A DNA stretch of 32,000 nucleotides from Candidatus Electrothrix yaqonensis (GTDB taxonomy: Bacteria; Desulfobacterota; Desulfobulbia; Desulfobulbales; Desulfobulbaceae): positions 2,010,001 through 2,042,000 of the forward strand of contig CP178758.1 of the NCBI GenBank assembly GCA_047651235.1, read 5' to 3'. The notes under the pieces were generated by a model. It made no database searches. It saw only the letters and a list, made by a program, of their open reading frames with translations, and was not told the origin of the DNA. Positions 5,675 to 31,818 of this stretch are shown here, piece by piece; position 1 is the first letter of the stretch, and the number at the start of each line of letters is the position of its first letter. The translations under genes and the position numbers were made by a program.

Positions 5675-5788
5675 TTAAAAAATGTTGGAAATAGTTATCT
5701 GGTGATGAGGATGAACCTTTATGGAGTACAAGCCTTCGGTGGGGTGCGGTTCAAGGCTGAGGAGGTTGATGATTTCGTCCGATGTCAT
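5675..5788 (-). pseudogene. Stub of a DUF985/cupin-like gene (N-terminal about 20 codons, then unrelated tail)
   Basis: MTSDEIINLLSLEPHPTEGLY... resembles the cupin_5/DUF985 N-terminus (L-x-L-x-PHPEGGYF). A second copy of the same segment lies at about 6723-6800. Confidence 0.4.
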
Positions 5789-5832: not shown

Positions 5833-6720
5833 TCACGCATTATTCTCCGCCTGCAAGGCCCGGATTTCTTCCTCTGTCAGATCAGTCATGTCCGCAACGG
5901 TTCTGATATCCAATGTGCCGATACGGAGGAGCTTTTGTGCTATTTGTACAGCTTTTTTCTTTTCCCCACGTTGTTCTCCTTCCAAAACAGCGGCGGTATA
6001 CGAGGATTCAAACATGCTTGCCTGGTAATGCAGGTTTTCCCGATATCGTTCGTAGGCTCGTCGCTCATTATCAGGAAGTTTCATGATATCAAGTTCGTGC
6101 TTGGCTTTTTCCAGGCCTCTTGCCTGAAATTCCTCCTTTATCTCCTCATTTTTGAGAAAATATATCCACTCGTCCAAGGTGTCTTTGGCAATATCGTTAA
6201 AGCTGTTCACCTTGATAAGGTAGTATTCCGGAAAAATCTGATGCACTTCCTGCTTCTGATAAAGGGCCTGCTGTTTTTTTGACAGCCGAAGAACATCCTG
6301 ATTATGGATACCCAGGAAAGAGGTCGAGCCGTGATAGACATAGTCTGTTCCCTGACCGAGATCAAAATAAAGGATATTCACAGAGATAACTTTGACCACA
6401 GCAGAATAGGGATCACCTTCCTGAAGATGCTCGGTAAGGACTTTGGAGGTGCCGAAGAGAATACGCTGGAGGTAATCAAGCTCGCGGTCGTACTGCACTT
6501 CGATGATCATCAGTTCATCTTGCTGGTTCCTGACCTTCAGATCCACCCTGTTGAACTTGTCCCGATGTTCTTCCTGATTGCCTTCGCTCTCAAGGATTTC
6601 CAGGATATGGATATCCTCTTTCAGGAGTTCGCTGAGAAAACCTTCCAGGATGTCGAAGTTTGCCTTGCTTCGCAGGAGCTTTTTCATGGCCCAGTCAAAG
6701 CTGATGAGTTTTCGTGCCAT
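5833..6720 (-). CDS. Rpn-family recombination-promoting nuclease / PD-(D/E)XK putative transposase
   Basis: 295 aa. The N-terminus ISFDWAMKKLLRSKANFDILEGFLSELL and the core VDLKVRNQQDELMIIEVQ (D...E-x-Q) match the PDDEXK_2/Rpn family as I recall it. The C-terminal HTH-like tail is LDIRTVADMTDLTEEEIRAL. Confidence 0.8.
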   Translation of the reverse strand: MARKLISFDWAMKKLLRSKANFDILEGFLSELLKEDIHILEILESEGNQEEHRDKFNRVDLKVRNQQDELMIIEVQYDRELDYLQRILFGTSKVLTEHLQEGDPYSAVVKVISVNILYFDLGQGTDYVYHGSTSFLGIHNQDVLRLSKKQQALYQKQEVHQIFPEYYLIKVNSFNDIAKDTLDEWIYFLKNEEIKEEFQARGLEKAKHELDIMKLPDNERRAYERYRENLHYQASMFESSYTAAVLEGEQRGEKKKAVQIAQKLLRIGTLDIRTVADMTDLTEEEIRALQAENNA

Positions 6721-6777
6721 AGTTACCGGTAGTATTCGTGGGTTCTGCGGAAATAGCCGCCTTCGGCAGGGTGGGGA

Positions 6778-6849
6778 TCAAGGCTGAGGAAGGCATTCCT
6801 CGGCGCGTTGCATACGGTGCAGCACCAAGTCCTTCTTCCATTCCGTCAC
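6778..6849 (-). pseudogene. HEPN partner stub (23 codons) left downstream of the MNT gene
   Basis: The GTG overlaps the MNT stop as GTGA, the same junction as at 29284. VTEWKKDLVLHRMQRAEECL resembles HEPN N-termini, then hits a stop. It partly overlaps, in another frame, a cupin-like reading FLSLDPHPAEGGYFRRTHEYYR (6723-6800). Confidence 0.4.
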
Positions 6850-7160
6850 AGTCTGACTGCTTCCTGCAGAACCTGCCGGTGGAAGGGCATAACCTGAAAG
6901 ATACCACTGTTCCACTCCTCACGATTCCACACGATTGAGGAAATGATCTCCCCGGACTCCCATTCTATTTCGTAGAGCCTGTGCCGGATTCGGTCCTTGC
7001 GTTCATCGCTGACATGACCGGGAACCAGAATAAGTAAATCCCAGTCTGACTCCCGGACGGCATCCTGACGGGCGCGTGAACCGTACAGCAGGGTCTCGGC
7101 ATCAGGTTCCAGTTCCAGAACAGCCTGTTTTATCTGATCAAGGAGCTTGTTACCGTTCAT
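6846..7160 (-). CDS. Minimal nucleotidyltransferase (MNT, antitoxin-type), apparently orphaned
   Basis: 104 aa with the Pol-beta NTase signature LLYGSRARQDAVRESDWDLLILV. Confidence 0.85.
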   Translation of the reverse strand: MNGNKLLDQIKQAVLELEPDAETLLYGSRARQDAVRESDWDLLILVPGHVSDERKDRIRHRLYEIEWESGEIISSIVWNREEWNSGIFQVMPFHRQVLQEAVRL

Positions 7161-8572: not shown

Positions 8573-8809
8573 TCACTTATACCCCCCAACCCTCACATCC
8601 AGCACATCCACCAACCGCCCGTAATACTGATCCCGCACCAGGTCCAGCAGGGCGGCATAATCGGCCACGTTGACGGTGAGGTTGCTGACCGCTGATCCGG
8701 CAAAGCCCGGCAGGGTGTATTCGCCGTCCGCCGTGACGGTCACCGTCTCACCCGCAGGCCCGAAGGCTTCACACCAACTCCCAATCCTTAAACACCGGCT
8801 GATACCCAC
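8573..8809 (-). CDS. Hypothetical small ORF or fragment downstream of the thiH-tail remnant
   Basis: GC-rich reading TVTVTADGEYTLPGFAGSAVSNLTVNVADYAALLDLVRDQYYGRLVDVLDV. The annotated start lies inside the repeat, so the true start is unknown. Confidence 0.3.
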   Translation of the reverse strand: MGISRCLRIGSWCEAFGPAGETVTVTADGEYTLPGFAGSAVSNLTVNVADYAALLDLVRDQYYGRLVDVLDVRVGGYK

Positions 8810-8824
8810 TCTACCGGATTATCT
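8768..8824 (-). repeat. Duplicate of the last about 17 codons of thiH (direct repeat of 9026-9083)
   Basis: 45 nt are identical (ttcacaccaactcccaatccttaaacaccggctgatacccactct), and about 10 more match with 2 mismatches. It reads EIIR*SGYQPVFKDWELV* against thiH DMIRESGYQPVFKDWELV*. Confidence 0.85.
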
Positions 8825-8835
8825 CGATCTTGGAA

Positions 8836-9042
8836 TCAATCCTCATTTTTTCGCAATGCCATTGCCTTTTGACTAATTTCCTCAATGCTGCCCTCTTCTT
8901 CATCCAGTTCCCCTCGCCACTTTGTGTAGTCAAAGGGTTCCTGCTGAATCAAGGCAGCCAAACGCTCGGCGTTGAAATATCTCAACAAGCTGGAAAGAAA
9001 GCTGAACAGTTTCAAACGCCACCCTTTCACACCAACTCCCAA
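8836..9042 (-). CDS. Small hypothetical ORF lying between the two thiH-tail repeats
   Basis: 68-aa track ORF with a TTG start inside the thiH tail. The acidic C-terminal half is PFDYTKWRGELDEEEGSIEEISQKAMALRK. No SD or family recognised. Confidence 0.3.
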   Translation of the reverse strand: MGVGVKGWRLKLFSFLSSLLRYFNAERLAALIQQEPFDYTKWRGELDEEEGSIEEISQKAMALRKNED

Positions 9043-10136
9043 TCCTTAAACACCGGCTGATACCCACTCTCCCGGATCATATCCGCCACCTCATCCACGC
9101 TACGGTCATCAGTGACCTCAAACTGCACCGTGGCGTCAGCATGATTTTTCAACGAATATTCCCCTACCCCCGTCTTGGATCCGGAAGAGAAGCGGGTCGC
9201 GCCGAGATGAACCAGTCGGTCGCGGAAGGCAGCTGATTCGCGGGTTGAAATGGTGATGCCCAGCCGGGGCATGAAGAGCCGCCAGGCCAGCATGAACTGG
9301 ACAAAATCAATATCGGAAAGAATGTTTTTTGGTTCAATGATCCCCTTGGCCTTGGTCATTCGGGGCAGGGAGAGGGAAATCTCCACATCCGGGAATTCTT
9401 GCTCCAGCCAGCGGGCATGGAGCGCAGCCATACATGCCTCCCTGCGCGGTTCCCCCAGGCCGAACAGGGTGCCGATATTCAGGGCCCGGAAGCCTGCCCG
9501 TGCCCCGCGTTCCGGGGTCAGCAGGCGGTACTCGTAATCCGCCTTTCTGCCGCGCGGATGCACCTCTTTATAGATATTCCGATCATAGACCTCCTGGTAC
9601 ACGGTGAGTGAATCGGCTCCGGCCCGGCACAGCACCCGGTAGTCCTCCTCATCCATCGGGAAAATTTCCAGGGCAATGGATGAAAAGTATTTTTTCATCA
9701 CAGCGACTGCTGCTTCCAGATAGGATATCGGGGTCTTGGCCGGGGCTTCGCCGGTGAGGATCAGGATGTGGCGGATACCGGTGGCAGCAATGGCGGCAGC
9801 CTCCCGTTCGATTTCTTCGATGCTCAACTTGGTGCGGGGGAAATCCACGCCTGCATTGAAGCCGCAATAGGTGCAGAGATTGGAACAGTAGTCGGAAATA
9901 TAGAGGGGCGCGTACAGGCTGATGATATTGCCGAAATGCTGGCGGGTGAGCCGCTGAGCCTTGCGGGCCATTTCTTCGAGGAAATTGCGGGCTGCTTCAG
10001 AAAGCAGGTTCAGCAGGTCGCGCTGGTCCAGTTCCTCCCGCTGCAGAGAGTTGCGCACGTCCGCCGGGGTGACAGATTGAAAATATCCTTCAAAATCAAA
10101 ATTATCCAGTTCCAGAACGCGGTGCATAAAGGACAT
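9027..10136 (-). CDS. thiH: 2-iminoacetate synthase (tyrosine lyase), radical SAM
   Basis: 369 aa with the CSNLCTYCGF radical-SAM cluster motif. It lies downstream of thiS-thiG. Confidence 0.93.
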   Translation of the reverse strand: MSFMHRVLELDNFDFEGYFQSVTPADVRNSLQREELDQRDLLNLLSEAARNFLEEMARKAQRLTRQHFGNIISLYAPLYISDYCSNLCTYCGFNAGVDFPRTKLSIEEIEREAAAIAATGIRHILILTGEAPAKTPISYLEAAVAVMKKYFSSIALEIFPMDEEDYRVLCRAGADSLTVYQEVYDRNIYKEVHPRGRKADYEYRLLTPERGARAGFRALNIGTLFGLGEPRREACMAALHARWLEQEFPDVEISLSLPRMTKAKGIIEPKNILSDIDFVQFMLAWRLFMPRLGITISTRESAAFRDRLVHLGATRFSSGSKTGVGEYSLKNHADATVQFEVTDDRSVDEVADMIRESGYQPVFKDWELV

Positions 10137-15222: not shown

Positions 15223-16030
15223 TCAGCTGAGCCTGACTATCTCCTGAAGGATTTGCTCAATAACTTCAGTATTGTAAATTTTCTTCTTTTTTCCGTTTCC
15301 TTTGATGGAATACACGAAAAACACCTTGCCGCCAAATTTCTTTGTGAACCGCTCGTGATTTCGGCGGTGCATTTCGAGTCATTGATATTTATTGACAGAC
15401 TGACCGGAGGTAACAGGTTTTATCTGAATGCCGATATAGTTTGAATTGATCTGAATGTAGAAATCAACACCGTAGTGCTCAGTCATAGCTAAGTTTTAGG
15501 ATTGCTATCTCCAAATAAGATACGAATATTAAACGAGTGCGACATGTTCAACCCTAAATTTTAGGCTTTACAAAGCAGTAGGTTCTGTCCCATTCATCCG
15601 GGGCAGGTTCTATTTCCCGGTTCAGAATGGATTCAAGCTGCCCGTAGACAGTGTCAATTTCTGCCCGGTATCCTTCATAGGTCCGGTTAAGCACCAGATT
15701 GTAGGCATAGTCGATACATTCCTCTTCGGATATCGCATTAAGTTCGCTGCGGATGACTTCGGATATTTTGATGTACAGGGTCTGACTAAGTCCTGTTATG
15801 TATTCCTTCGTAATTCTGAGACCTTCTTTTTTCTTCTGTCGGGCATTGCTGAAGTAAAAAGTCTCCCACTCCGCAAAACTGCCCGGAGCACAAGCCCGTA
15901 TCAGTTCAGATGTGGGGCCTACGCTGTATGCTTTGTTCAGCCCCCATCGGTTCATGCCGTAATTCAACAGAGTTTCCCGCCTGAATTTCAGATTTCGCCC
16001 CTCTGCACCGGAGATCCATTCTTTCTTCAT
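15223..16030 (-). pseudogene. Disrupted type II restriction endonuclease-like gene (cognate of the adjacent methyltransferase)
   Basis: The N-terminal piece is ORF 15554..16030, whose start overlaps the MTase stop. The C-terminal piece at 15223..15486 reads MTEHYGVDFYIQINSNYIGIQIKPVTSGQSVNKYQ*LEMHRRNHERFTKKFGGKVFFVYS. It has a D...Q-I-K (PD-(D/E)XK-type) core and an in-frame TGA at 15379-15381. All frames are closed between the two pieces. It is possibly MjaI-like, but that family call is from memory only. Confidence 0.55.
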
Positions 16031-17315
16031 TCTTGTCTCAAACGGAGAAATTTCTGTTTGTTTTTGTACTCGGTCTGCTCGTCAACAAAAACCAGTCCGT
16101 TTTTGATCAGATGGGCATTCAGAAAGGTTCTGTTTTTCAGGTATAAATAGCAGAGGAGGTTGTTGTCTTTATCGTGTTTGTCCCGGTCGAACCGCATGTA
16201 CACCTTCTGGTTTTTTGTTTTCCTCTGCAGAAATGCAACCGCATCCTGATTGCAGGCTGCGTCTTCTTTTATACCGATCAGCCGGACTGTCAGGCCGTTA
16301 CCGAGCTGAACAAGTTCCGGAGTAAGGACTGTTTTCACACTGTGATACTCTTCTCTTTGGCCGGAATCCCTGTTGATTTTTGAACCGAACTGCAGTTTTT
16401 CCGGATCGATTTTTTTATCAAACGCGTGAGGGTCTTTGAAAACATACGGGAGCCTGCTGATTTCCTCGGCAAAATCAACATCTAACTTGCCCTGTTCAGT
16501 AAACTCGTATTCCGCCCCCAATATTTCCACCTGATTGATCTGGAGCTTCTTTTTAATAAAGGGTATAAATTCAGCATTTATTTCATAGCCGACTGAATTT
16601 CTGCCGTTATTCTTTGCCGCCAGGGTTGTTGTGCCGCTGCCGAGGAACGGATCAAGGACAGTATCACCGACAAAGGAGAACATCTTGATCAGTCTTTTCG
16701 GTAGCTCTTCCGGAAACATGGCAATATGGCCGTCCTGCTTTGCCCCACGAAAATTCCAATGCCCGGCAAAGTACTCCTTCCATTCCTCCTTGGTCATTTT
16801 GGATAATTCTTTTATCTCTTTGGTCGCCTTTTTCGGGGTACCGAGCTTCTTGAAAAGGAGAATAAATTCATAATCAATAGAGAGAATACCATTGCGGGGA
16901 TGAGGAAAACTGCCCATGATGCTGGCCCCGCCTGTGGTATTAGTGGTTGTTTTTTTTGCCATATCACCGCCCCCATGTAGTCAAATCCGATGCTCTCACA
17001 GAACTTGATGATTTCCGTCCGGATCGGAATGACTTTATAGCGGCCGTAATAGACCGAACGGGCGAACTGATCCCCGATATTGATACAGAGCCTGCAGCCG
17101 TTATCGAGCACCCTGTGACATTCATTCCAGACAAGATTCAACGGGTTGATATAGCTTTCGTAGCTGTCATTGAAGCCTATCTGCTCCTCTGTGCCGTAAT
17201 CCTTCAGCTGCCAGTACGGCGGTGAGGTGATGACAAGATGAACGGACTTGTCGTTCAGTTCGTTCATTTTTCTGCTGTCGCCGCAGATAATCGTATGGCG
17301 TGTTGTCGTGTTCAT
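16027..17315 (-). pseudogene. Beta-class N4-C/N6-A DNA methyltransferase with a C-terminal SNase-like domain, split by a frameshift in an A8 tract
   Basis: ORF 16812..17315 carries motif IV (VITSPPYWQLKDY). ORF 16027..16962 carries motif I (DPFLGSGTTTLAA). The two join as ...GAVIWQKK/TTTNTTGGASIMGSF across the T8 run at 16950-16957. The C-terminal 130 aa (LTVRLIGIKEDAA...CYLYLKNRTFLNAHLIKNGLVFV) look thermonuclease-like. Confidence 0.8.
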
Positions 17316-20670: not shown

Positions 20671-20984
20671 ATGTTAAATAAAAGCTGAACGAGAAAACTT
20701 CTGCACGGCCAAAACGATAATGGCCTTTGTCATGCCGCCACAGAAACATCGCTCCATTAATATGACTGATAATTTCCGAGAGGAGGGTAACTGCTGTTCC
20801 CGTTGAGACGCCATGAAACGACTCATAAAAATGCTCTGCTTCCGCTCCGGCATCTCACCGGTGCTCCGGACTTTCCGGACCGACTGGCAGACCGCCTGCT
20901 GTCCGGCGGTTGCGCCGTTCTGAAAATTATCAGAGTATTCTACGCATCTCCAGAACCTGGCTGACCTTTTGTGTAGCGGCAGTC

Positions 20985-21138
20985 AATCTCAAAAAAACAC
21001 CAGCAGATATACCGTAGCAAGGGCGATATGCATTGCCGCAAAGGGTAAGGCTTTGCGAACAAAACCGCCGAAGGACAGTTTGAGCTTGTGTTTATGAATA
21101 ATGGTGACAGCAACCAGGGTTGAAGCACTGCCGATGGG
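20985..21138 (-). pseudogene. Detached duplicate of the last about 50 codons of the permease gene (direct repeat of 21487-21640)
   Basis: 154 nt are roughly 90 percent identical by eye. It translates PIGSASTLVAVTIIHKHKLKLSFGGFVRKALPFAAMHIALATVYLLVFF*, against ...AALHITLATVYVLVFF* for the attached copy. Most differences are synonymous. Confidence 0.85.
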
Positions 21139-21413: not shown

Positions 21414-21490
21414 AAGTCGGGCTGTTATTGTCTCAGGAAAAAGGAGTAGGGCTATGTGTCAGCCAATGATAATGTTTTTCTTTGTAAATC

Positions 21491-22867
21491 TCAAAAAAAC
21501 ACAAGCACATAGACCGTGGCAAGGGTGATATGCAGTGCCGCAAAGGGCAAAGCTTTGCGAACAAAACCTCCGAAGGACAGTTTGAGCTTGTGTTTGTGAA
21601 TAATGGTGACAGCAACTAGAGTGGAGGCACTGCCGATGGGCGTGAGGTTGCCGCCGAGGTTGGCGCCGAAGATCACGGACCACCAGAGCGGTGAGTCAGC
21701 TGCGGTTCCCTGGGCAGCAAGGATCTTGCCGAGCATGGCGGCCAGCGGAATATTATCCGTCACACTGCTGAAGGCAGCGGACGAGAAGAGCAGCGCACCG
21801 ATCCCGAAACGACTTTCCTCTTCACCGATAATTCGGGTGATGCCCTGGCCGATCAGTTCCAGCACCCCGGCGTATTCCAGCATATGGATCACCACAAACA
21901 GGGCCATGAAAAAGCCGATCAGGTCCCAGTCAACCGCTTTATAAAATTGGTCCACCTCATGCTTGAAGCGGATCAGCATGATGAGGGCAAAGGTCAGGGC
22001 CACGTAGCCCATGCCCAGACTGCTGACCACCGGCAGAACAGAGGTGGTGGCAATCACCAGAATGAACGCGCCCAGCATAATCGCACCGAACCAGAAGAAT
22101 CCCTGGCTCTCAATGCCGTCGTTCTCATCGAACCCGGCAACATGCTGCTTGGCTGCGGCGATCTCCTCGGCATCGCTCAGCTTCCTAATCCTGAAGAGAC
22201 GGGCACCCAGCCAGATGGTGGCACAGGTGGCCACGAGCACGTAGGGACTGGCCTTGAGGAAAAAGGTCATAAAGCTGATACCGGCGGTGGTGCCGATAAT
22301 GATATTGGGCACCGAACTGATCAGGGTGAGCAGGCCGCCGATATTGGTGAGTAGTCCCTCAATCAGCAGAAAGCCCAGCAACTGCTCTTCCCGCTGCAAC
22401 CGCTTCAGGGAGACTGCGGACAGGGAACCGACAATGATCATGGCGGTCACGTTGTTCAGCACGGCAGAAAACACCACGGTCATGATCCCGTAGTACCAGA
22501 GCAGCTTCAGGGGATCACCGCAGGAGAGCTTGGTGAGTTTAATGGCAATCCAGGTGAACAGACCGGAGCGGGAGGTCACATCGACAAAGATACTGGAGCC
22601 GATAATGATGGCGATCACGCCCCAGTCAATGGCTTCAATATACACCGGCATGTTGAGCGTATGCCCATTCGGCAGGGTAATCGGGCCAAAGGGCAGCAGG
22701 CCCAGTGCCCCGTCCAGCAGCAACAGAGCTGCGGCAAACAGGCCAACGATCAGGGATTTTTTGGCGTGTATCTTTTCTTCCAGTGCCAGAGAGACGATCA
22801 GCAGGACAAGAACACCGGTAAAAAAAATGGTGGTGCCATGCGAGGCATGGGTAACGGCATGTTCCAT
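21491..22867 (-). CDS. ArsB/NhaD-superfamily (SLC13-like) ion/anion permease
   Basis: 458 aa and polytopic (about 11-12 TM). It has the duplicated hairpin-type motifs NNVTAMIIV and GGNLTPIGSASTLV. Confidence 0.75.
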   Translation of the reverse strand: MEHAVTHASHGTTIFFTGVLVLLIVSLALEEKIHAKKSLIVGLFAAALLLLDGALGLLPFGPITLPNGHTLNMPVYIEAIDWGVIAIIIGSSIFVDVTSRSGLFTWIAIKLTKLSCGDPLKLLWYYGIMTVVFSAVLNNVTAMIIVGSLSAVSLKRLQREEQLLGFLLIEGLLTNIGGLLTLISSVPNIIIGTTAGISFMTFFLKASPYVLVATCATIWLGARLFRIRKLSDAEEIAAAKQHVAGFDENDGIESQGFFWFGAIMLGAFILVIATTSVLPVVSSLGMGYVALTFALIMLIRFKHEVDQFYKAVDWDLIGFFMALFVVIHMLEYAGVLELIGQGITRIIGEEESRFGIGALLFSSAAFSSVTDNIPLAAMLGKILAAQGTAADSPLWWSVIFGANLGGNLTPIGSASTLVAVTIIHKHKLKLSFGGFVRKALPFAALHITLATVYVLVFF

Positions 22868-23958: not shown

Positions 23959-24058
23959 GCCCCAGGGTTGAAACTATGTTCGGTGCGTCCCTCCGGGACG
24001 GCGGTTCTCCATTGTCCCTGAGGGACAAACGATAATAGCCCCGTGATTTATCGCGGGG
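23959..24058 (+). repeat. Hairpin-rich about 100-bp repeat, copy 1 (partner at 26238-26337)
   Basis: ccagggttgaaa...gtccctccgggacgg...ttgtccctgagggacaa...cgataatagccccgtgatttatcgcgggg aligns with the copy downstream of the STAND gene. The last 29 nt are identical. Confidence 0.75.
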
Positions 24059-24099
24059 GAACGTGTTGGTGGTTTTTGAAAGAGGAGCAGGAGGCAGTG

Positions 24100-26087
24100 A
24101 TGAAGGATAACAGGTTCGACAACAAAGACGGCGGAGACCAGAACATTGCCCAGGGGGATAGGGCTGTGAGCAAGGTCACCCAGACAAGCATCGGCAGTAA
24201 CAACGCCTCTACCGGCACAGGCGATATCAACATAACAAACAAGAACTATCTGCCCGCCGAAGCGGTGCCCTCCTCCATCCTTCCCAGCGAAGACTCCATC
24301 TTCCTCCACCGGGAGGAAGAACTATCCTGGCTGGACAACCACCTGCACCCGGACAAGGTGGTCGCCATCTGCGCACCAGGGGGCATGGGCAAGACCGCGC
24401 TGGCAGCCCGTGCTTTGGGTATCAGGGCTGAGGCTGATTTGGAGCAACAGGTTGCTGCGGCTCTAGGCAGTAAGCAGGCATTGCTGGTTCTGGACGGGGC
24501 TGAGGAGGCTGACGACCTGGATGCTGTGCTGCGTCTGCGCGGGACCTGCGGGGTGCTCATCACCACAAGGAAGCGGACCGACTGCGGACCCTTGCGCCTG
24601 GATCTACCACCCCTGCCTGAAGATCAGGCGGAAGAGGTGTTGCAGGCCTACAGCCAAGTGACCGGGGAGAAGGAGGCCATCCAAGGCATTGAGAAGATAC
24701 TGGGTGGCTGGCCCGTGGCCCTGCGTATTGCTGGTCATTATCTGCACAGTACCGGGGAGCCTGCGGCAGACTACCTGCGCTGGCTGAAGAAGCGGCCTTT
24801 CAGGAAGCTGCGGACTGGTGGCGAGCATCAGAAAGACAACGCGGCTCTGCTGCTGGAACGCAGTGTGGAGCAGGTGAGCGCGGATGCAGTCCTGGTGCTG
24901 CGGCTGGCCGGGGTGCTGGCCTTTGCGCCTATCAGCCTTATGTCGGTGATGTTTGTTTTGTCGACAGATGGTGAAGATCAGGAGGAGCTTGAGCTGCGCA
25001 GCATGGAGGCCGTGAATGAGCTGGTCAATTACGGGCTGCTGGAACGCCGGAAGGAGGGCCTGCATATCGGCCATGCCCTGATCCATGAGTATGCTGCTGG
25101 GCAGTTGGTTTTGGGGAAAGAGGAGCTGGGGCGGGTTGCTGCTTTTTATATTGATTGGTGCAAGGAACAGAGTGCTGCCGGGGTACCGGGCTATGTCCGC
25201 CTGGATGGGGAACGGGTGCATTGCCTGCGGTTGATTGGGGCCTGTTTGGAGAGGGAGTTGTGGAGGGAGGTGAAAGGGTTGGTCGGGGAGATGTGGGAGT
25301 ACCTTGACCGACAGGGCCATTGGACAGAGCAACTGGCTGCCGTAGAGATGCGCCTGACTGCGGCCCGGCAGGCAGGCGACCGCCAAGATGAGGCAATTTG
25401 CCTGAATAACCTGGGCTACACCTGTTGGCGGCGCGGGGAGCAGGAACAGGCCCTGCGCTGGTATGAACAATGCCTGCCCATACGCCGCGAGCTGGGCGAC
25501 CGGAAGAATGAGGGTGTAACCCTTAACAATATTGCTGTAATTTATTGGCAGCAAGGCAAATATGATGAGTGCTTGGAACAATGTAAGCAGAGTTTAAGCA
25601 TCCACCGAGAGATTGGCAACCGGAGGGAAGAAGGCGTAACCCTGAATAATATTGGCAGGGCTTATAAGACACAAGGCTATAATGAGAAAGCATTGCAGTA
25701 TTATGAACAGTGTCTGCCTATCGCACAAGAAGTTGGCGATAAGATCGGGGAAGGGATAACCCTGAATAACATTGCTGGCATCTATACCGTGCGCAAGGCA
25801 ACCATGCTATGAGTTTGAAGTATCTTAAACAAACATCAGGAATATACCAAGAGATTAGTGACAGGGCCGGAGAGTTACTAACATACTGGAACATCGGCCT
25901 CACTTATGAAGACATGGGCGATCTTGCCGAGGCAGAGAAATACATTACTCAGGCTATACAGATTGCTAAGGCCATTAGCCATCCTGAATTAATGACATAC
26001 CTTAAGGGGTTGGCAGCGGTACAGGCAAAGAGACGGGGGATGTATGGACAATTCCCTTTAAGTGCCCGTAGTGATGACTACCTATAG
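24100..26087 (+). pseudogene. STAND NTPase: NB-ARC-like P-loop domain plus TPR array, with a frameshifted 3' end
   Basis: The Met at 24100 follows AGGAGCAGGAGG. It has Walker A (APGGMGKTALA), Walker B (ALLVLDGAEE) and a GxP-like motif (GGWPVALRIAGHYL). There are 5 or more TPRs (LNNLGYTCW..., LNNIAVIYW..., LNNIGRAYK..., LNNIAGIY). The frame breaks at about 25783-25787 (atctataccgt) and the TPR reading YRAQGNHAMSLKYLKQ... continues in ORF 25809..26087. Confidence 0.8.
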
Positions 26088-26237: not shown

Positions 26238-26337
26238 CAGGGTTAAAAGGGCTCTATTCGCTTCGTCCTTTTGGGACGGCTTCCCTTGTCCCGTAGGGAC
26301 ATCCGATAATAGCCCCGTGATTTATCGCGGGGCGAGG
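26238..26337 (+). repeat. Hairpin-rich about 100-bp repeat, copy 2
   Basis: See 23959-24058. The two copies bracket the STAND NTPase gene in direct orientation. Confidence 0.75.
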
Positions 26338-26607: not shown

Positions 26608-26844
26608 AGCATGCTGACTCAGGCCGAAACAGTGGCTCGAAATGTTCCGAAATGGATCAGCGAGGCCGGATTCACAGCCCTTTCTGTCGGCCCCGGTCAT
26701 GCCCAGCTTGCCGGGGAATGGGAAATGTCGCACCGTGACCCCTTTGACCGAATGCTTGCGGCCCAGGCAAAGCTGGAAAATATCGTTCTGGCAAGCGTTG
26801 ACAAAGAATTGAGACGATTCCCTGTTCAAATCATGAGGAAATAA
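26608..26844 (+). pseudogene. C-terminal half of a COG3744-type PIN toxin gene, copy 1
   Basis: VPKWISEAGFTALSVGPGHAQLAGEWEMSHRDPFDRMLAAQAKLENIVLASVDKEL carries the HRDPFDR-L-AQA motif. The N-terminal DTH/SxWE half is absent. A 77-codon ORF from the ATG at 26611 is possible. Confidence 0.65.
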
Positions 26845-26965
26845 AGGGGGAGGGGCCAGCATAATGTTTCCGGGAGAGCAGGCTTGGAGTTCGGCGCATG
26901 CTTCGGTATAAAAAGGATCGAAAACCGTGTGCGGCGAGGCGTCTGCAGAAGGGGCAGGATGCGAG

Positions 26966-27385
26966 TTATACATCAAAGGGGTTAATGAGGGGCAATGCTG
27001 CAATATCTTTAAAGTCTTTGGTGTTACGTGTTGCCAGGCTGAACCCGTTGGATACGGCGACGGAAGCAATCTGGGCGTCTTCCACGCTCATTGTTATGCC
27101 TTTTTTACGAGTATCGGCAATAAGTTCTGCATAGATAGAAGCCTCAGTTGCCCCGAAGGCCAGGCAGCGGTCAGAAAAATTACTGAATACCTCTTGGGCT
27201 GCGGCCAACAAGGATTGCTTTTTTCTGCTTTCCGGCAGGAGAGTAATACCGAGTTCAATCTCTGCCTTGGTGATAGCGCAGATAAAAAGGTCGGTGACGA
27301 TTTGCTGATCCAGCCAGGAGATAACCCGCTTATCTGGAGACGGGCGCATGGGTTCCGAGAGGATATTGGTGTCAAGAAGGATCAT
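26966..27385 (-). CDS. vapC: PIN-domain toxin VapC (FitB-like)
   Basis: 139 aa with MILLDTNIL, acidic residues in the expected positions (AEIE, VEDAQIA) and TRNTKDF. It overlaps the upstream antitoxin by 4 nt. Confidence 0.9.
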   Translation of the reverse strand: MILLDTNILSEPMRPSPDKRVISWLDQQIVTDLFICAITKAEIELGITLLPESRKKQSLLAAAQEVFSNFSDRCLAFGATEASIYAELIADTRKKGITMSVEDAQIASVAVSNGFSLATRNTKDFKDIAALPLINPFDV

Positions 27386-27630
27386 TCCTCATCAGCCTGC
27401 AAATCAAGGGAACGGGGAGCAGAGTGAACAGGGGCTATATCAATTCCGCCGATGGGGTTAAACTTTTGTTGAATAAGTGTACCTAATCCTTTTTTTGTAG
27501 CAGGTTGGAGAATTGCGGCCCGCAAAATCCTTCTGGCTTCCTCTTCCATTGAACAGGCATGACGGGCAGCCTGCATTCGCAGGCCCTTTTTCACGGCAGG
27601 ATCAAGGTTTCGAATGGTAAGACTCGGCAT
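27382..27630 (-). CDS. vapB: Ribbon-helix-helix antitoxin VapB (FitA/StbC-like)
   Basis: Internal Met of ORF 27382..27708. MPSLTIRNLDPAVKKGLRMQAARHACSMEEEARRILR is the typical RHH N-terminus. Confidence 0.8.
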   Translation of the reverse strand: MPSLTIRNLDPAVKKGLRMQAARHACSMEEEARRILRAAILQPATKKGLGTLIQQKFNPIGGIDIAPVHSAPRSLDLQADEE

Positions 27631-27680
27631 CAGAACACTCCATAGGTTGATGTGGTTGAAAAAACGTTGATGTGCGTTTA

Positions 27681-27800
27681 TTATAGGGAATGCATGCATT
27701 GCATGCAAGGGATAATGCGCAGCCGCAGTTCGTTTTCCGTCTCATTTAAGGCAAGGAGGATGTCGGCGGGGAAGTCTACAGATATTGATTGCGTATTCAT
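27681..27800 (-). pseudogene. N-terminal stub of a UPF0175-family antitoxin
   Basis: GGAGG lies 9 nt before the ATG at 27800. MNTQSISVDFPADILLALNETENELRLRI matches UPF0175 N-termini, then the reading degenerates (IPCMQCMHSL*). Confidence 0.5.
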
Positions 27801-27837
27801 TATGTTATTAACCTCCAAAGCTCCTTTTGTTTTATTC

Positions 27838-27973
27838 CCTTACAATTACATCATTCTCAGTATATTCAATTCTTCCCGGAATCTCAACGGCTCCGGTTCA
27901 GCGAATTGAAAATTCACCTGATGAAAAATAACCCTGCTTCCTGATACGCATATTTTCCTGTAGCGGCTCTTTG
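27838..27973 (+). repeat. Leader repeat, copy 1 (partner 31238-31350), here fused to MNT pseudogene copy 1
   Basis: cccttacaat..attctcagtatattcaatt..caacgg..gattga..cctgatga.. aligns over about 125 nt at roughly 75-80 percent identity by eye. Confidence 0.7.
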
Positions 27974-28275
27974 ATGATCCGCATCTGCCTGCGGGAAGAA
28001 GTACATCGTCTGCTTCCTGATGCGAAAGTAATTCTGCACGGTTCCCGTGTCCGCCAATGCAACCCGGCAGGATTCTGACTGGGATTTTTTGATCATCGCT
28101 GATCATCCGTTGGACAGAGAGATCATAACAAAGCTGAAGGATGGGCTGTATGACATTGAGTTGGAAAATGATGAGGTGGGTGAGCAGCATTATACGGAGC
28201 AGGCAGGAGTGGTCTTCGCCTGCATACGATGCCTTGCTGTTCAAAAAGGCGGTGGAGAAAGAGGGTGTAGTGAAA
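27974..28275 (+). pseudogene. MNT nucleotidyltransferase pseudogene, copy 1 (altered 5' end, two frameshifts)
   Basis: MIRICLREEVHRLLPDAKVILHGSRVRQ, then a shift at cgccaat (about 28051-28056) to ANATRQDSDWDFLIIADH... A second shift comes from an extra g in gaggtgggtgagc (about 28176-28180). Confidence 0.75.
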
Positions 28276-28292
28276 CTTGGTGCGTCCCCTAT

Positions 28293-28661
28293 TTAATCAT
28301 CGAGAAATCGGTCTTCATTTCGGAATGCTGTTCTGTAAATGAACTCCAAAACTTCTTTCAGAGAGATTGCACCGCTTTCAACTATCTTTTCGCTGTCGAT
28401 ATGCTTATGGTGCGGAAATGTTGCGAGATGTTTATGATGCGGTGCATTGTCCCAGCGGGCGAGCATGGTTCCCTCTTCACTCTGCCAGTGAAATGAGTAA
28501 TTGCGCTCTGACGCATCCACATACTCTCTAACAAACAAGACGGATTTGTCAACAAAGATTATTTTGATCTTTCGGTAAAATCCGTCTGACCATCTTCTGT
28601 ATTCCTGAATTTCATATCCTTCTATCCAATCTGACTCGTCAAGCAATCTCGAAATTTCCAT
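28293..28661 (-). CDS. DUF6516-like protein (I recall some databases calling this family a TumE-type TA toxin)
   Basis: The Met at 28661 (MEISRLLDESDW) overlaps the upstream gene by 23 nt. The conserved-looking core is YSFHWQSEEGTMLARWDNAPHHKHLATFPHHKH. The family name is from memory. Confidence 0.55.
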   Translation of the reverse strand: MEISRLLDESDWIEGYEIQEYRRWSDGFYRKIKIIFVDKSVLFVREYVDASERNYSFHWQSEEGTMLARWDNAPHHKHLATFPHHKHIDSEKIVESGAISLKEVLEFIYRTAFRNEDRFLDD

Positions 28662-28926
28662 GCCTGACCTCTTCAATCTTGACGGACAATTCGTCAAATA
28701 TTTTTACCTGCGATTTCCATTCAATGTAATCGTCCCATCGGGAAAAGTCTTCCTGTTCGGCATGTTCAACCTGCTCTTTGAATTCATTCCACGGTTGCTT
28801 GTATTTCTGTTCAAAGAGCCGTATTTTTTCGCGTACTGTATGCAGAGCGGCATGGTATTCCATCAGAAGCCATTCCGCGATTTCCTGTCTGTACACTGTA
28901 ACCATGACGTTCTTCTCCGGTTTCAT
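28639..28926 (-). CDS. Small acidic helical protein, putative antitoxin-like partner of the DUF6516-like gene
   Basis: MKPEKNVMVTVYRQEIAEWLLMEYHAALHTVREKIRLFEQKYKQPWNEFKEQVEHAEQEDFSRWDDYIEWKSQVKIFDEL. An alternative start is at 28950. The 5' part of track ORF 28639..29106 is antisense to MNT copy 2 and was discarded. Confidence 0.5.
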   Translation of the reverse strand: MKPEKNVMVTVYRQEIAEWLLMEYHAALHTVREKIRLFEQKYKQPWNEFKEQVEHAEQEDFSRWDDYIEWKSQVKIFDELSVKIEEVRHGNFEIA

Positions 28927-28956
28927 CTTATATGTGGGGCATTTTTCCATATTCTT

Positions 28957-29287
28957 ATGGTAACTTATTTGGTTAATCAGGTCAAGAACCTGCATCAGGT
29001 GCGGGAGGAAGTACATCGTCTGCTTCCTGATGCGAAAGTAATTCTGCACGGTTCCCGTGCCCGCCAATGCAGCCCGGCAGGACTCTGACTGGGATTTTTT
29101 GATCATTGCTGATCATCCGCCGGGCAGAGAGATCATAACAAAGCTGAAGGGTGGGGTGTATGATATTGAACTGGAAAATGATGAGGTGGTGAGCAGTATT
29201 ATACGGAGCAGGCAGGAGTGGTCTTCGCCTGCATACGATGCGTTGCCGTTCAAAAAGGCAGTGGAGAGAGAGGGCGTAGAGCTGTGA
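28957..29287 (+). pseudogene. MNT nucleotidyltransferase pseudogene, copy 2 (full length, single frameshift)
   Basis: MVTYLVNQVKNLHQVREEVHRLLPDAKVILHGSRAR, then a shift at cgccaat (29051-29057), then ANAARQDSDWDFLIIADHPPGREIITKLKGGVYDIELENDEVVSSIIRSRQEWSSPAYDALPFKKAVEREGVEL*. Removing one C gives a spacing identical to the intact MNT at 6846..7160. Confidence 0.75.
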
Positions 29288-29334
29288 ACCGCAAGGAAGA
29301 CATAATCCTCTACTGGCTTGAACATACTGGATAA
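29284..29334 (+). pseudogene. HEPN partner stub (16 codons) after MNT copy 2
   Basis: GTGA start/stop overlap. VNRKEDIILYWLEHTG* resembles a HEPN N-terminus (..YW.EKA..D) and then terminates. Confidence 0.45.
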
Positions 29335-29374
29335 ATCTCAGCCCGTCTTAACGCTATGGAGCACGCTGTACTTT

Positions 29375-29671
29375 TTAATTTCTGCGACCTGACAACGCCC
29401 GCAACACAGCTTTCGGTTCCTTTGCCACAACATTCAGCAGTACACGCGCCGGACCTCGCGGAGTGCGGTCACCCCGTTCCCAGTGGCGAAGTGTCCCCAA
29501 GCTGATACCGAATGCGGAAGCGAATTCCGCCTGGGTCATTCCTATATGCTGACGAACCGCCTTCACATCCGGCTGTGTAACCTCATGCACAACAGCCTTT
29601 ATCGGTTTTCCTTTCGCAAAATCAATAGATTCACGTAGTCCTTGCTGAATACTCTCAAATGCGCTGCTCAT
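29375..29671 (-). CDS. XRE-family HTH antitoxin
   Basis: Met at 29671 (MSSAFESIQQGLRESIDFAKGK...). The HTH is IGMTQAEFASAFGISLGTLRHWERGDRTPRGPARVLL. It starts 1 nt after the toxin stop. Confidence 0.8.
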   Translation of the reverse strand: MSSAFESIQQGLRESIDFAKGKPIKAVVHEVTQPDVKAVRQHIGMTQAEFASAFGISLGTLRHWERGDRTPRGPARVLLNVVAKEPKAVLRALSGRRN

Positions 29672-29672
29672 C

Positions 29673-30038
29673 TCACGCCCCTCTTTGTTTACTTCCATAT
29701 GTCGCCAGCAGTTCTTCGGTTAATTTGGCCAGCATGTTCCGCTCCGCTTTGCTGATGTTCGCCTTTTCGGATTTTCCGAACAAAGTCAGCAGAAACAACG
29801 GGTATTGCTCACTGTGAAAATAGTAGATGACCCGGACACTGCTGCTTTTTCCCGTGCCTTCGCGTTTCCAGCGCAGTTTCCGAATACCGCCTGTACCCTG
29901 AAGGAGTACACCTGCCTCTGGATTGGCTGCAAGATATCGGATCAGATTTTCCCGCTCCGGGGTACGCAGCAATTTTTCCGCACGTCGGATAAATTCCGGG
30001 AGTTCGACTACTGTGTTCATAGGGATATTGTAATCCAT
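29673..30038 (-). CDS. RelE/ParE-superfamily (HigB-like) toxin
   Basis: GGIRKLRWKREGTGKSSSVRVIYYFHSEQYPLFLLTLFGKSEKANISKAERNML is the typical toxin core. An alternative start is at 30020. Confidence 0.8.
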   Translation of the reverse strand: MDYNIPMNTVVELPEFIRRAEKLLRTPERENLIRYLAANPEAGVLLQGTGGIRKLRWKREGTGKSSSVRVIYYFHSEQYPLFLLTLFGKSEKANISKAERNMLAKLTEELLATYGSKQRGA

Positions 30039-30134
30039 TGGATTACTCTTGACAAGAGGGGGAGGTGCCTTGGCGTAAAAAAGGTCAGTGAGAGGAACGC
30101 GGCGTTATGTCGATTTTCCCGCCGTGACCTCTCT

Positions 30135-30362
30135 TTCTGCACGGTTCCCGTGTCCGCCAATGCAACCCGGCAGGACTCTGATTGGGATTTTCTGATCATT
30201 GCTTATCATCCGTTGGACAGAGAGATCATAACAAAGCTGAAGGATGGGCTGTATGATATTGAACTGGAAAGTAATGAGGTGGTGAGCAGTATTATACAGA
30301 GTAGGCAGGAGTGGTCTTCGCCTGAATACGATGCGTTGCCGTTCAAGAAGGCGGTGGAGAGA
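30135..30362 (+). pseudogene. MNT nucleotidyltransferase pseudogene, copy 3 (truncated at both ends)
   Basis: It starts at ttctgcacggttcccgtgtccgccaatgc, which contains the same frameshift context. It reads ANATRQDSDWDFLIIAYHPLDREIITKLKDGLYDIELESNEVVSSIIQSRQEWSSPEYDALPFKKAVE. Confidence 0.7.
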
Positions 30363-30376
30363 AATTTATCTTGTAT

Positions 30377-30685
30377 TCAGGAATCCTGGATCAGAATTCC
30401 GTTTTTCATTATTTCTTTCAGAAAACCGCCTTGATCATGTTTCGTTTCGAGAAGAACCGGTTCAATTCTGTCGTCCACTTCTCTCCTGATCTTCCAGAGC
30501 AGCGGTCTTGTGGAAAAATAATCTCCCTCCATTTCATCAACTATTATGGCGACATCTACATCGCTGTCTTCCCGTTGAGTTCCCCGCGCATAAGAGCCGA
30601 ACAGCATCATTTTATCAAATGCCATATATTGTGACAGGAGACGCTTGTATTGTACCAGTTTTCTTATAACCTCTTCTTTATCCAT
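30377..30685 (-). CDS. Minimal nucleotidyltransferase (MNT) of an intact HEPN/MNT pair
   Basis: 102 aa with MLFGSYARGTQREDSDVDVAIIV. It overlaps the upstream HEPN gene by 22 nt. Confidence 0.85.
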   Translation of the reverse strand: MDKEEVIRKLVQYKRLLSQYMAFDKMMLFGSYARGTQREDSDVDVAIIVDEMEGDYFSTRPLLWKIRREVDDRIEPVLLETKHDQGGFLKEIMKNGILIQDS

Positions 30686-31071
30686 TGTTGCAGTTCCTTT
30701 GCATTTTCAAGTATCTCTTTACAGCGTTCTTCCGTTAAACTTCTCATCAGCTGCTCTTTGTACGTCGGGTATCTGCACTCAATATTCATCGGTTCGAGCA
30801 TGTCGATAAAAAGTTTCTGGTTCTCTGAAAAAGTATCATAAATTTCCGCTTTCTTTGCGAGGTAAGACAAACTGTGGGAAAAAGGGGCCGGTTTGCCGTT
30901 GCCTTTCACGTAGCAGGCCTTGAGTATCTTTTCAACGGACTGGTGGGCCATGAAGCCGACATAGAGATACCGCTTACTCTTCAGCATAGCTTGGGCTGTT
31001 TCAATATCATATTCTGATAATTCAACCCAGTATTGTACTTGATCAGTCATCTCATTATAACATTTCTTCAT
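30664..31071 (-). CDS. HEPN-domain protein
   Basis: 135 aa. YWVELSEYDIETAQAMLKSKRYLYVGFMAHQSVEKILKA ... HSL ... ECRYP is typical of a HEPN four-helix domain. Confidence 0.85.
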   Translation of the reverse strand: MKKCYNEMTDQVQYWVELSEYDIETAQAMLKSKRYLYVGFMAHQSVEKILKACYVKGNGKPAPFSHSLSYLAKKAEIYDTFSENQKLFIDMLEPMNIECRYPTYKEQLMRSLTEERCKEILENAKELQQWIKKRL

Positions 31072-31129: not shown

Positions 31130-31236
31130 TATAGCTGGAGCAGTATAAACTGAATACAGGATCAGCTATCTGAAAGGCGTGAAGGCAAAACTTATGCCTC
31201 TTGTGGGCATATTCAAATTATGTTGCTCCAGCTATA
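31130..31236. repeat. 13-bp perfect inverted repeat with an 81-nt spacer, upstream of the HEPN/MNT operon
   Basis: tatagctggagca (31130-31142) and tgctccagctata (31224-31236). Confidence 0.6.
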
Positions 31237-31237
31237 T

Positions 31238-31350
31238 CCCCTTACAATCGTATTATTCTCAGTATATTCAATTTTTCACGAAATTTCAACGGTTACAGTT
31301 TAGTGGATTGAGCATTTGCCTGATGAGGTGCTTTTGTTCCGCAGACGCAA
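31238..31350 (+). repeat. Leader repeat, copy 2, here fused to PIN half-gene copy 2
   Basis: See 27838-27973. Confidence 0.7.
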
Positions 31351-31559
31351 CCGAAGAAAAGACGGCTCGAAGTGTTCCGAAATAAATCAGCGAGGTCGGG
31401 TTCACCGCCCTTCCTGTCGGTCCTGATCATGCTCGGCCTGCCGGGGAATGGGAAACGGAGCACCGCGATTCTTTTGATCGGATGCCTGCGGCGCAGGCGA
31501 AACTGGAAAATGTCGTTCCCGCAGGCGTTGACAAAGAATTGAGGCGATTTCCTGTGTAG
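31350..31559 (+). pseudogene. C-terminal half of a COG3744-type PIN toxin gene, copy 2 (with an in-frame stop)
   Basis: SVPK*ISEVGFTALPVGPDHARPAGEWETEHRDSFDRMPAAQAKLENVVPAGVDKELRRFPV*, with TAA at 31383-31385. DNA similarity to copy 1 continues past the stop to about 31690 (versus about 26905). Confidence 0.6.
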
Positions 31560-31818
31560 ATTATGAGGGAATAAATGAGGGCAACAGGCGGGTGGCCGAT
31601 GCCCGGTACAATGCGTTATGGGTTGTGCAAGGTTTCCGGGGAGTGGGGCTTGATAGCGGCACATGGCTCGGTATGATGAGGGGGGAATGTGTAAGCAGGA
31701 AAGGTGATCTGACCCCGGTTTATGCTACGCTTGTATTCTGCTTGTTTTTTTGAATCCGATACGGTAATTTATTTAAGTTTATTAACCCAATTTATAAAAT
31801 TTATCCATTTTGAACACC

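Follow-up and report, generated by a model that had tools for sequence, protein, structure and literature searches.

A frameshifted MNT antitoxin pseudogene as a direct repeat between toxin-antitoxin cassettes of cable bacteria

Results

Three MNT gene copies with a common one-nucleotide insertion

Here, we examined a 32,000-nt stretch of the closed genome of Candidatus Electrothrix yaqonensis YB6 (contig CP178758.1, positions 2,010,001 to 2,042,000; hereafter, the window, with position 1 being its first letter), which includes an island of toxin-antitoxin (TA) genes. A repeat search of the window yielded one family with three direct copies (28032-28259, 29042-29269 and 30135-30362), which are 1.0-1.1 kb apart and lie between self-contained TA operons encoded on the opposite strand (Table 1). 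All three derive from a gene for the minimal nucleotidyltransferase (MNT), the antitoxin half of the MNT-HEPN TA modules, and are referred to below as copies of the MNT repeat. Their outer limits were set by gapped alignment together with blastn, and copies 1 and 3 are, respectively, 92.9% and 92.5% identical to copy 2 (blastn).

The original prediction for this locus, made from the letters of the window, held that the three copies share the same 1-nt frameshift, and three-frame translation combined with alignment confirmed this. In every copy, one frame reads LHGSR(V/A)RQC and the +1 frame ANA(A/T)RQDSDWDFLII, the MNT/NTP_transf_2 frame being broken by an extra C (CGC-C-AAT). Removal of one C from copy 2 yields a 109-aa protein that matches PF01909 (NTP_transf_2; E 4.5e-10, residues 14-67, covering the shift site) and also PF18765 (E 4.8e-7), and the GSRAR-6 aa-SDWD spacing of this protein equals that of the intact paralog at 6846-7160, again as predicted. 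Both the domain match and the spacing between the GS and DxD motifs appear only once the C is removed, and none of the window copies contains a single uninterrupted MNT frame. The predicted second, private frameshift of copy 1 was found to be an extra G in a GGG run that is absent from all other copies, and copy 3 indeed lacks both ends, namely, codons 1-17 and 94-98. The prediction had not remarked that copy 1 also lacks the first ~3 aligned codons and the native start, and its concern about a C-run at the lesion was misplaced, the site being a CC dinucleotide rather than a homopolymer run. An adjacent HEPN toxin gene is missing throughout: copy 2 is followed by a stub of 16 codons and copies 1 and 3 by nothing of the kind. 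In GenBank, the 76-aa remainder of copy 2 in the +1 frame (29057-29287) is annotated as a protein (P0027, 100% identity).

Table 1. Coordinates of the features of the MNT repeat array and of its surroundings in the window
Feature	Position	Strand	Description
Distant MNT paralog, intact	6846-7160	-	Spacing reference of the original prediction
VapC (PIN) and FitA-like RHH antitoxin	26966-27385 and 27382-27708	-	PF01850, PF22513; left of the array; 90% identical to E. marina L018
PIN (VapC-type) 5' fragment, 75 nt	27923-27997	+	93% identical to E. marina L018 3545-3619
MNT repeat copy 1	27990-28270	+	Pseudogene, codons ~4-96 of the MNT core; extra C at 28054/55, extra G at 28178-28180
REP-like singlet (AGTGAAACTTGGTGCGTCCCCTATTTAA)	28269-28296	+	Exactly between the end of copy 1 and the TumE stop codon
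Cassette 1, TumE-family toxin	28293-28697	-	PF20126 TumE, E 3.5e-24; between copies 1 and 2
Cassette 1, putative antitoxin partner of TumE	28639-28905	-	Open reading frame; no Pfam family reaches the cut-off
5' extension of copy 2	28920-28956	+	Common to repeat copies in other genomes
MNT repeat copy 2	28957-29287	+	Full length, ATG to stop; extra C at 29064/65 is the only lesion
HEPN partner stub, 16 codons (VNRKEDIILYWLEHTG, then stop)	29284-29334	+	Matches, by alignment, the start of HEPN genes that follow intact MNT genes
Cassette 2	29375-30038	-	RelE-family toxin 29673-30038 and XRE/NadS-like antitoxin 29375-29698; matches to PF06296 (E 2.3e-8), PF01381 (E 1.1e-8) and NF041265 (E 4.6e-15)
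MNT repeat copy 3	30132-30362	+	Codons 18-93, cut at both ends; extra C at 30157/58
Cassette 3, intact, different MNT and HEPN	30377-30685 and 30664-31071	-	PF18765/PF01909, PF05168
Second instance of the REP-type motif	31696-31723		

The lesion in other cable bacteria

The extra C is present in 15 of the 18 related copies that cover codon 25, in ten assemblies that include Illumina metagenome-assembled genomes (MAGs) and the freshwater genus Electronema. Outside the window, 12 of these copies come from nine further assemblies, of which several are Illumina-only, and the carriers are Electrothrix (E.) aarhusensis, E. gigas, E. marina, E. laxa, Electrothrix GW3-4, two uncultured Electrothrix MAGs and Electronema KV. 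The other 3 of the 18 copies are 5'-truncated or have another frameshift. Intact orthologs, which the original prediction had proposed to seek in relatives, exist as 115-aa genes of Electrothrix, Electronema and other Desulfobulbaceae and read CGC-AATGAA at the site, i.e., GSRVRNEARQDSDWD. In E. aarhusensis, such an in-frame ortholog (locus L002) is found alongside broken copies (L006 and L027). Downstream of the MNT gene, a HEPN reading frame is present in L008 and in L003-L005, where it was traced only partway. The extra C is genuine and old: an identical insertion in three diverged copies, recurring in 12 more from other genomes, is no chance coincidence.

Decay of the repeat copies

An intact full-length open reading frame (ORF) is found in none of the 21 repeat-clade copies from the genome loci, and many of these have further, private defects, including stops, 1-3-nt indels and truncations. 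Additional lesions are common to different genomes: copies of E. gigas and E. marina (L009 and L020) both lack 10 nt at codon 37, copies of E. laxa and GW3-4 (L025 and L041) both lack 1 nt at codon 9, and copies of E. aarhusensis and one more Electrothrix (L027 and L011) have one additional nucleotide at codon 54. The pooled Nei-Gojobori ratio of non-synonymous to synonymous substitution rates (dN/dS) is 0.36 for the frameshifted copies vs 0.10 for the intact genes. With substitutions private to one copy taken as a proxy for change after copying, for which the neutral expectation is 27-29% synonymous, the repeat clade displays 34 synonymous, 57 non-synonymous and 2 stop changes (codon positions 28:25:40), compared with 42 synonymous and 27 non-synonymous changes in the intact genes (Fisher p=0.003). 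The MNT repeat copies are thus shown to be decaying and to evolve almost neutrally; purifying selection on the MNT protein was not detected, and a slight synonymous excess remains.

Several copies display mosaic patterns at the lesion. In L006, the extra C stands beside a GAA codon of the intact type, and L027 and L011_1317 contain the intact-type GTTCGC and no extra C, which hints that gene conversion has transferred short tracts between the repeat copies and the intact genes. In Electronema KV (L008 5001-5727), a frameshifted MNT copy is followed by an apparently intact HEPN reading frame that extends to the end of the locus; this predicted HEPN toxin, if active, must be neutralised in trans by another MNT.

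Origin of the repeat family and exchange between species

In a neighbour-joining tree, the repeat copies all fall into a single clade whose sister is an intact Electronema gene; the family has a single and old origin. Within the clade, the three window copies are dispersed, and each is nearer to a copy from another species than to the other members of its own array. The partner of copy 1 is an E. marina copy, likewise beside VapBC, that of copy 2 is another E. marina copy with the same 5' extension, and copy 3 pairs with copies of E. aarhusensis and other genomes. Given that the window copies are not each other's nearest relatives, the copying must have occurred long before the YB6 lineage, or elsewhere. 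Tandem duplication in situ within YB6 was considered and ruled out, because the copies are not closest relatives and the intervening cassettes are unrelated.

Between species, the repeat copies and the neighbouring cassettes are 88-94% identical, whereas the best genome-wide average nucleotide identity (ANI) of YB6 to any cable bacterium is 77.8% (PMC12093952). For sequence that evolves near neutrality, this disparity points to recent horizontal exchange of island segments, comprising both the MNT repeat and its cassettes, among cable bacteria. The original prediction held that the repeat spread after the gene died. This stands insofar as the lesion predates the copying and the copies are non-coding, but the spread did not take place in this genome, being family-wide and horizontal. 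Nor is the shared lesion strict proof of copying after death, as had been argued, because short gene-conversion tracts are visible.

Architecture of the cassette arrays

Direct MNT repeat copies spaced 0.85-1.7 kb apart occur not only in the window but also in L008, L009, L010, L011, L020, L025, L031 and L041, with five copies in 10 kb in E. laxa (L025). Across genomes, the intervals contain TumE, RelE/XRE, PIN/VapBC, HigB, Fic, HI1420-type antidote, MNT/HEPN and other genes. In every adjacent pair, the right copy begins, in MNT gene coordinates, upstream of the end point of the left copy, so that these are true duplications, and a single gene split by insertions is ruled out as the source of the fragments. 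Certain junctions are kept between loci: the junction of codon 96 (q323) with the REP-type motif described below recurs in the window, L027 and L031, and the junction q299|Fic|q191-251 in L010 and L025. E. marina has matching outer flanks (VapBC ... MNT/HEPN) with a single MNT repeat copy between them.

The cassettes themselves consist of ordinary TA genes. The putative antitoxin of cassette 1 has a predicted start at 28905 with a GGAG Shine-Dalgarno sequence, and a promoter-like TTGACC-17-TACCAT (a consensus match only) on the minus strand (28985->28957) faces the TumE operon; the 5' extension with this promoter-like site is found in copy 2 and in four copies elsewhere. Cassette 2 is 88% identical to L004 6195-6933 of a Desulfobulbaceae MAG, where it is located ~0.9 kb past an intact MNT gene with its HEPN reading frame, an arrangement that implies that the adjacency of copy 2 and RelE/XRE is an old neighbourhood minus most of the HEPN gene. 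Cassette 3 is 92-94% identical to its counterparts in E. marina and E. laxa (L018, L020 and L025).

In addition, a 92-nt direct repeat (27833-27924 and 31235-31326, 79% identity) lies upstream of the minus-strand VapB and HEPN/MNT operons, each of its copies having a promoter-like TTGAxA-17-TATACT on the minus strand; in E. laxa, it precedes the HEPN/MNT cassette as well (L025 4787-4849).

Microhomology and REP elements at the junctions

At its left end, copy 1 is joined to the 5' fragment of a PIN gene at a 7-nt microhomology, TGCGGGA. The PIN gene broken here has its 3' part at 26609-26850, left of VapBC, and is intact in E. marina (L018 3541-3939); a second 3' PIN remnant, 80% identical, is found at 31334-31680, at the right end of the island.

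The right end of copy 1 abuts a motif of 22-28 nt with the consensus AAACGTGGTCTGTCCCCTATTT, which occurs at breakpoints of TA gene remnants and proved to be of the repetitive extragenic palindromic (REP) type. Singlets of this motif are located at eight breakpoints of MNT repeat copies and HEPN remnants. Its positions include L009 5304, L010 4452 and 7004(-), L011 1684, L018 4982, L027 263, L025 3965/6238/9800, L003 944/2863/6721 and L004 6114/7700. In E. laxa, one singlet is inserted inside a HEPN stub, which again marks that sequence as non-coding. In the cable-bacteria loci, the motif is present as diverged singlets only, mostly in one orientation, and no gene for a REP-associated tyrosine transposase (RAYT) was found in the cable-bacteria sequence examined. 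In metagenomes, the motif was detected in >120 stretches with widely differing flanks and base composition, about a quarter of which have an inverted partner within 45 nt. In seven metagenomic loci (e.g., L052 and L080), it is inverted at 2-36 nt from both ends of a gene of ~240 aa for a Y1_Tnp protein (PF01797) of the RAYT type. Thus, inverted flanking of a Y1 HUH gene as well as dispersed extragenic copies and doublets, which are characteristic of REP/RAYT systems, are both observed. One metagenomic locus, L097, contains eight copies of the motif in 1.3 kb.

Other identities of the motif were considered. A search of Rfam returned no match except an unrelated group II intron. One exact match on a viral contig, beside an integrase fragment, had suggested a phage att site, an assignment superseded by the REP/RAYT result, and a dedicated cassette recombination site, dif-like or attC-like, is ruled out by the wide occurrence of the motif in metagenomes, where it behaves as a REP element. 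In L010 (4452-7004), an 826-aa ORF lies between two inverted REP-type motifs, directly to the right of an MNT repeat copy with its HEPN stub.

Other features of the window

The intact MNT paralog at 6846-7160 adjoins a PD-(D/E)XK 'transposase' gene (PDDEXK_2, Rpn/YhgA-like; 5833-6720) that is bracketed by 32-nt direct repeats (5732-5763 and 6759-6790, 88% identity); a PDDEXK_2-like gene also follows the intact MNT-HEPN genes in E. aarhusensis and E. laxa (L002 and L003). A split TPR/NB-ARC-like (STAND-type) gene pair at 24043-26087 has 51-nt direct repeats at both ends (24008-24058 and 26282-26332, 90% identity), each ending in the hairpin CCCCGTGATTTATCGCGGGG. Two further pairs of direct repeats are intergenic, one of 157 nt (20982-21138 and 21484-21640, 90% identity) and one of 58 nt (8768-8825 and 9026-9083, 95% identity). 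Finally, a type II restriction-modification pair (15554-16962), consisting of an MjaI-like endonuclease and an N6/N4 methylase fused to an SNase-like domain, occupies a low-GC stretch between housekeeping genes.

Discussion

A dead antitoxin gene as a proposed source of recombinational homology

The explanation that we favour, with a probability of about 0.75 for the whole, is that the MNT repeat is a pseudogene that yields no working protein and whose copies, as non-coding relics of an MNT gene, passively serve as homology for the recombinational insertion of TA cassettes. The one MNT gene from which the copies descend had already acquired an additional nucleotide, which follows codon 25 and falls between the GS motif and the catalytic DxD motif, and it persists as a direct repeat of 230-370 bp in a TA island that is horizontally exchanged among cable bacteria. 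The intervals between the copies each contain a different TA cassette, self-contained and in most cases on the opposite strand. The arrays would, in all likelihood, expand and be reshuffled through recombination of the RecA type inside the repeat. Crossover of two flanking copies would free a circle containing a partial MNT repeat and one cassette, and such a circle could re-enter by a single crossover at any other copy, producing the same two junctions and two overlapping copies. Campbell-type insertion of circles is suggested by the overlap of the direct repeats, by the unrelated cargo between them and by the conserved cargo-plus-junction units, whereas the first joining of cassettes and the truncations would have come about by illegitimate recombination at microhomology and next to REP elements. 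We infer that the repeats are passive rather than selected. The original prediction favoured a structural or recombinational role over a coding one, of which the non-coding nature stands and the role of passive homology tract is plausible, but an adaptive role is not borne out, given the lack of a structure signal and of any indication of selection. More tentatively, the dead MNT gene might even be the common currency of a recombinase-free cassette system, in which its copies are mobile homology arms and host homologous recombination moves circles between arrays, also across species and genera after DNA uptake; if so, cable bacteria would draw on an integron-like, horizontally shared pool of TA and defence cassettes.

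Several observations weigh against this explanation. The circle and single-crossover steps are read from the anatomy of the arrays alone, and the copies are only ~92% identical, which lowers the efficiency of RecA. The single-copy locus of E. marina is not derivable from the YB6 array by one simple crossover, because the copy ends differ. Downstream of the shift, 38% of the private substitutions are synonymous, compared with the neutral 27-29% (p about 0.02-0.05), and the pairwise dN/dS of the repeat copies is 0.36 rather than 1; we attribute the synonymous excess to gene conversion from intact paralogs combined with unsampled polymorphism, although weak residual constraint on the 76-aa remainder may also be involved. 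The high identity between species could in principle reflect constraint at the DNA level instead of transfer. Finally, three repeat-clade copies do not have the extra C, so that conversion or reversion does occur and the lesion is an imperfect marker of the clade.

Alternative explanations

Two alternatives concern the lesion itself. The closed YB6 genome was assembled from Oxford Nanopore Technologies (ONT) R10 reads and polished in a single round each of Racon and Pilon, and its authors report that polishing was difficult (PMC12093952), so that the extra C might be taken for a systematic consensus error. However, a CC dinucleotide is no homopolymer, the insertion recurs in independent assemblies of other species and genera, several of which are Illumina-only (with SPAdes and MEGAHIT contig names; E. 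aarhusensis MCF), the intact orthologs read CGC-AATGAA, and gene callers report the 76-aa remainder in ENA, JGI and NCBI data; thus, the lesion is real and the probability of an artefact is negligible. If the insertion is genuine, its location at exactly one site in many genomes could be accounted for by programmed +1 ribosomal frameshifting or other recoding, through which the copies would be translated into full-length MNT, in line with the extra C being the only defect in window copy 2 and both L008 copies and with the slight synonymous excess downstream. Yet, the sequence CGU-GYC-CGC-CAA-UGC offers no slippery or re-pairing site, since neither a CGC nor a GCC P-site tRNA can re-pair in +1; there is neither a stop nor a rare codon at the shift site, and no Shine-Dalgarno-like stimulator is discernible upstream. 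Furthermore, most copies contain additional frameshifts, stops, the 10-nt deletion or truncations that would destroy the product, so that not all members keep both frames open and selected; the private substitutions come close to neutrality, unlike those of the intact genes; and intact in-frame orthologs coexist with broken copies in one species, E. aarhusensis. Recoding, already ranked by the original prediction as the less likely alternative, is therefore rejected as highly improbable.

The other two alternatives accept the death of the gene and differ on its timing or consequences. Under concerted evolution, functional MNT paralogs would first have been distributed between the cassettes, with one frameshift then spreading among them by gene conversion, such that duplication preceded death. 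The signs of short conversion tracts in L006, L027 and L011_1317 are compatible with this sequence of events, and the residual dN/dS of 0.36 fits copies that diverged partly while functional. Most copies, however, are cut at one or both ends, at positions that never form a complete gene, and have no HEPN partner beyond stubs; several further lesions are also common to different species; and a disabling lesion that spreads through many functional antitoxin genes would unleash the toxins. We consider this scenario unlikely. Slightly less probable still is that selection maintains the repeat because of some non-coding function, as a divergent promoter or operator, as an antisense to intact MNT mRNA or as the site of an integron-like recombinase. 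Such a function could account for identity between species of 90-94% against an ANI of at most 78%, for the constant orientation relative to the cassettes in nearly all intervals and for the promoter-like TTGACC-17-TACCAT that faces the adjacent cassette in the 5' extension of five copies. But the truncation points vary to the extent that the core common to all copies is only ~60 nt (q191-251), indels of 1-10 nt are tolerated throughout, and no recombinase gene is found among the large ORFs of the window that were scanned or in the ORF lists of the loci. When the two strands of copy 2 were folded as RNA and compared with shuffles, the z-scores were -1.5 and -0.6, i.e., no structure signal, on which grounds a structured RNA or structural DNA was rejected. 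Moreover, the neighbouring cassettes, which are ordinary genes, are equally elevated in identity, so that transfer explains the similarity without any constraint on the repeat.

Implications for annotation and for the evolution of TA islands

In itself, the core observation of a shared lesion is ordinary; its family-wide distribution, the arrays and the exchange between species make it moderately more interesting. The immediate consequence is for annotation. The +1-frame products of 76-107 aa in public annotations (e.g., P0032, P0036, P0056 and P0058), designated 'nucleotidyltransferase domain-containing' or hypothetical, are likely mis-annotations, and the 76-aa products at sites of the MNT repeat, both in YB6 and in numerous further genomes of cable bacteria, are pseudogene remainders that should not be counted as antitoxins. 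To our knowledge, cable bacteria have neither a pure culture nor a genetic system. In these organisms, a repeat with 90-94% identity across genomes that are <78% identical clearly marks a recent exchange of DNA. The repeat-bracketed arrays present a concrete case of TA cassettes that accumulate and shuffle without a dedicated recombinase: if the recombination model is true, this would be a simple route by which defence and addiction modules are assembled into islands, and, if it is false, the locus would be an ordinary decaying TA island. A search of the full-text literature on cable bacteria and toxin-antitoxin systems returned no description of this island, and toxins, pseudogenes and transposases are not mentioned in the YB6 genome paper (PMC12093952).

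Comparison with known systems

The MNT repeat derives from the MNT gene of the MNT-HEPN (MntA/HepT, type VII) modules, with which it shares the NTP_transf_2/Polbeta domain and its GS...DxD motifs once repaired, as well as the overlapping GTGA junction to the HEPN start, a HEPN frame following the intact 115-aa orthologs in relatives. Unlike the genes of these modules, the repeat is frameshifted, truncated and multiplied, lacks HEPN sequence beyond the 16-codon stub and evolves near neutrality. The junction motif resembles the REP/REPIN elements of the RAYT (Y1 HUH) systems in its inverted placement at the two ends of Y1_Tnp genes and in the inverted doublets that it forms on metagenomic contigs; the loci of cable bacteria differ in containing only the diverged, mostly co-oriented singlets, with no RAYT gene in the sequence examined.

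As an assemblage, the arrays are reminiscent of chromosomal integrons, with co-oriented cassettes of ~1 kb, many of them TA modules, a recurring separator and a content that varies between related genomes. However, the separator is a pseudogene of 230-370 bp rather than an attC hairpin of 60-140 bp, and the TA cassettes have their own promoters. Neither IntI nor another recombinase was detected among the large ORFs of the window (Pfam), in L041 or in the ORF lists of L008, L010 and L025, the array ends lying beyond the sequence seen, and the repeat search found no inverted repeats at cassette boundaries, attC sites not having been searched for with a covariance model. By the features that could be tested, the arrays are not integrons.

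With the translocatable units of IS26, the arrays share direct repeats interleaved with unrelated cargo, overlapping adjacent copies and recurring cargo-plus-junction units. The MNT repeat differs in being a dead gene without a recombinase, so that host homologous recombination would be needed, in its identity of ~92% between variably truncated copies, and in that its mechanism is deduced. Similarly, in the arrays of orphan cdiA-CT/cdiI and Rhs modules, fragments of one conserved gene precede variable modules and provide homology for exchange. In those systems, the fragment is fused in frame to the toxin and can be reactivated, whereas, in cable bacteria, a defective repeat alternates with independent operons of the opposite strand.

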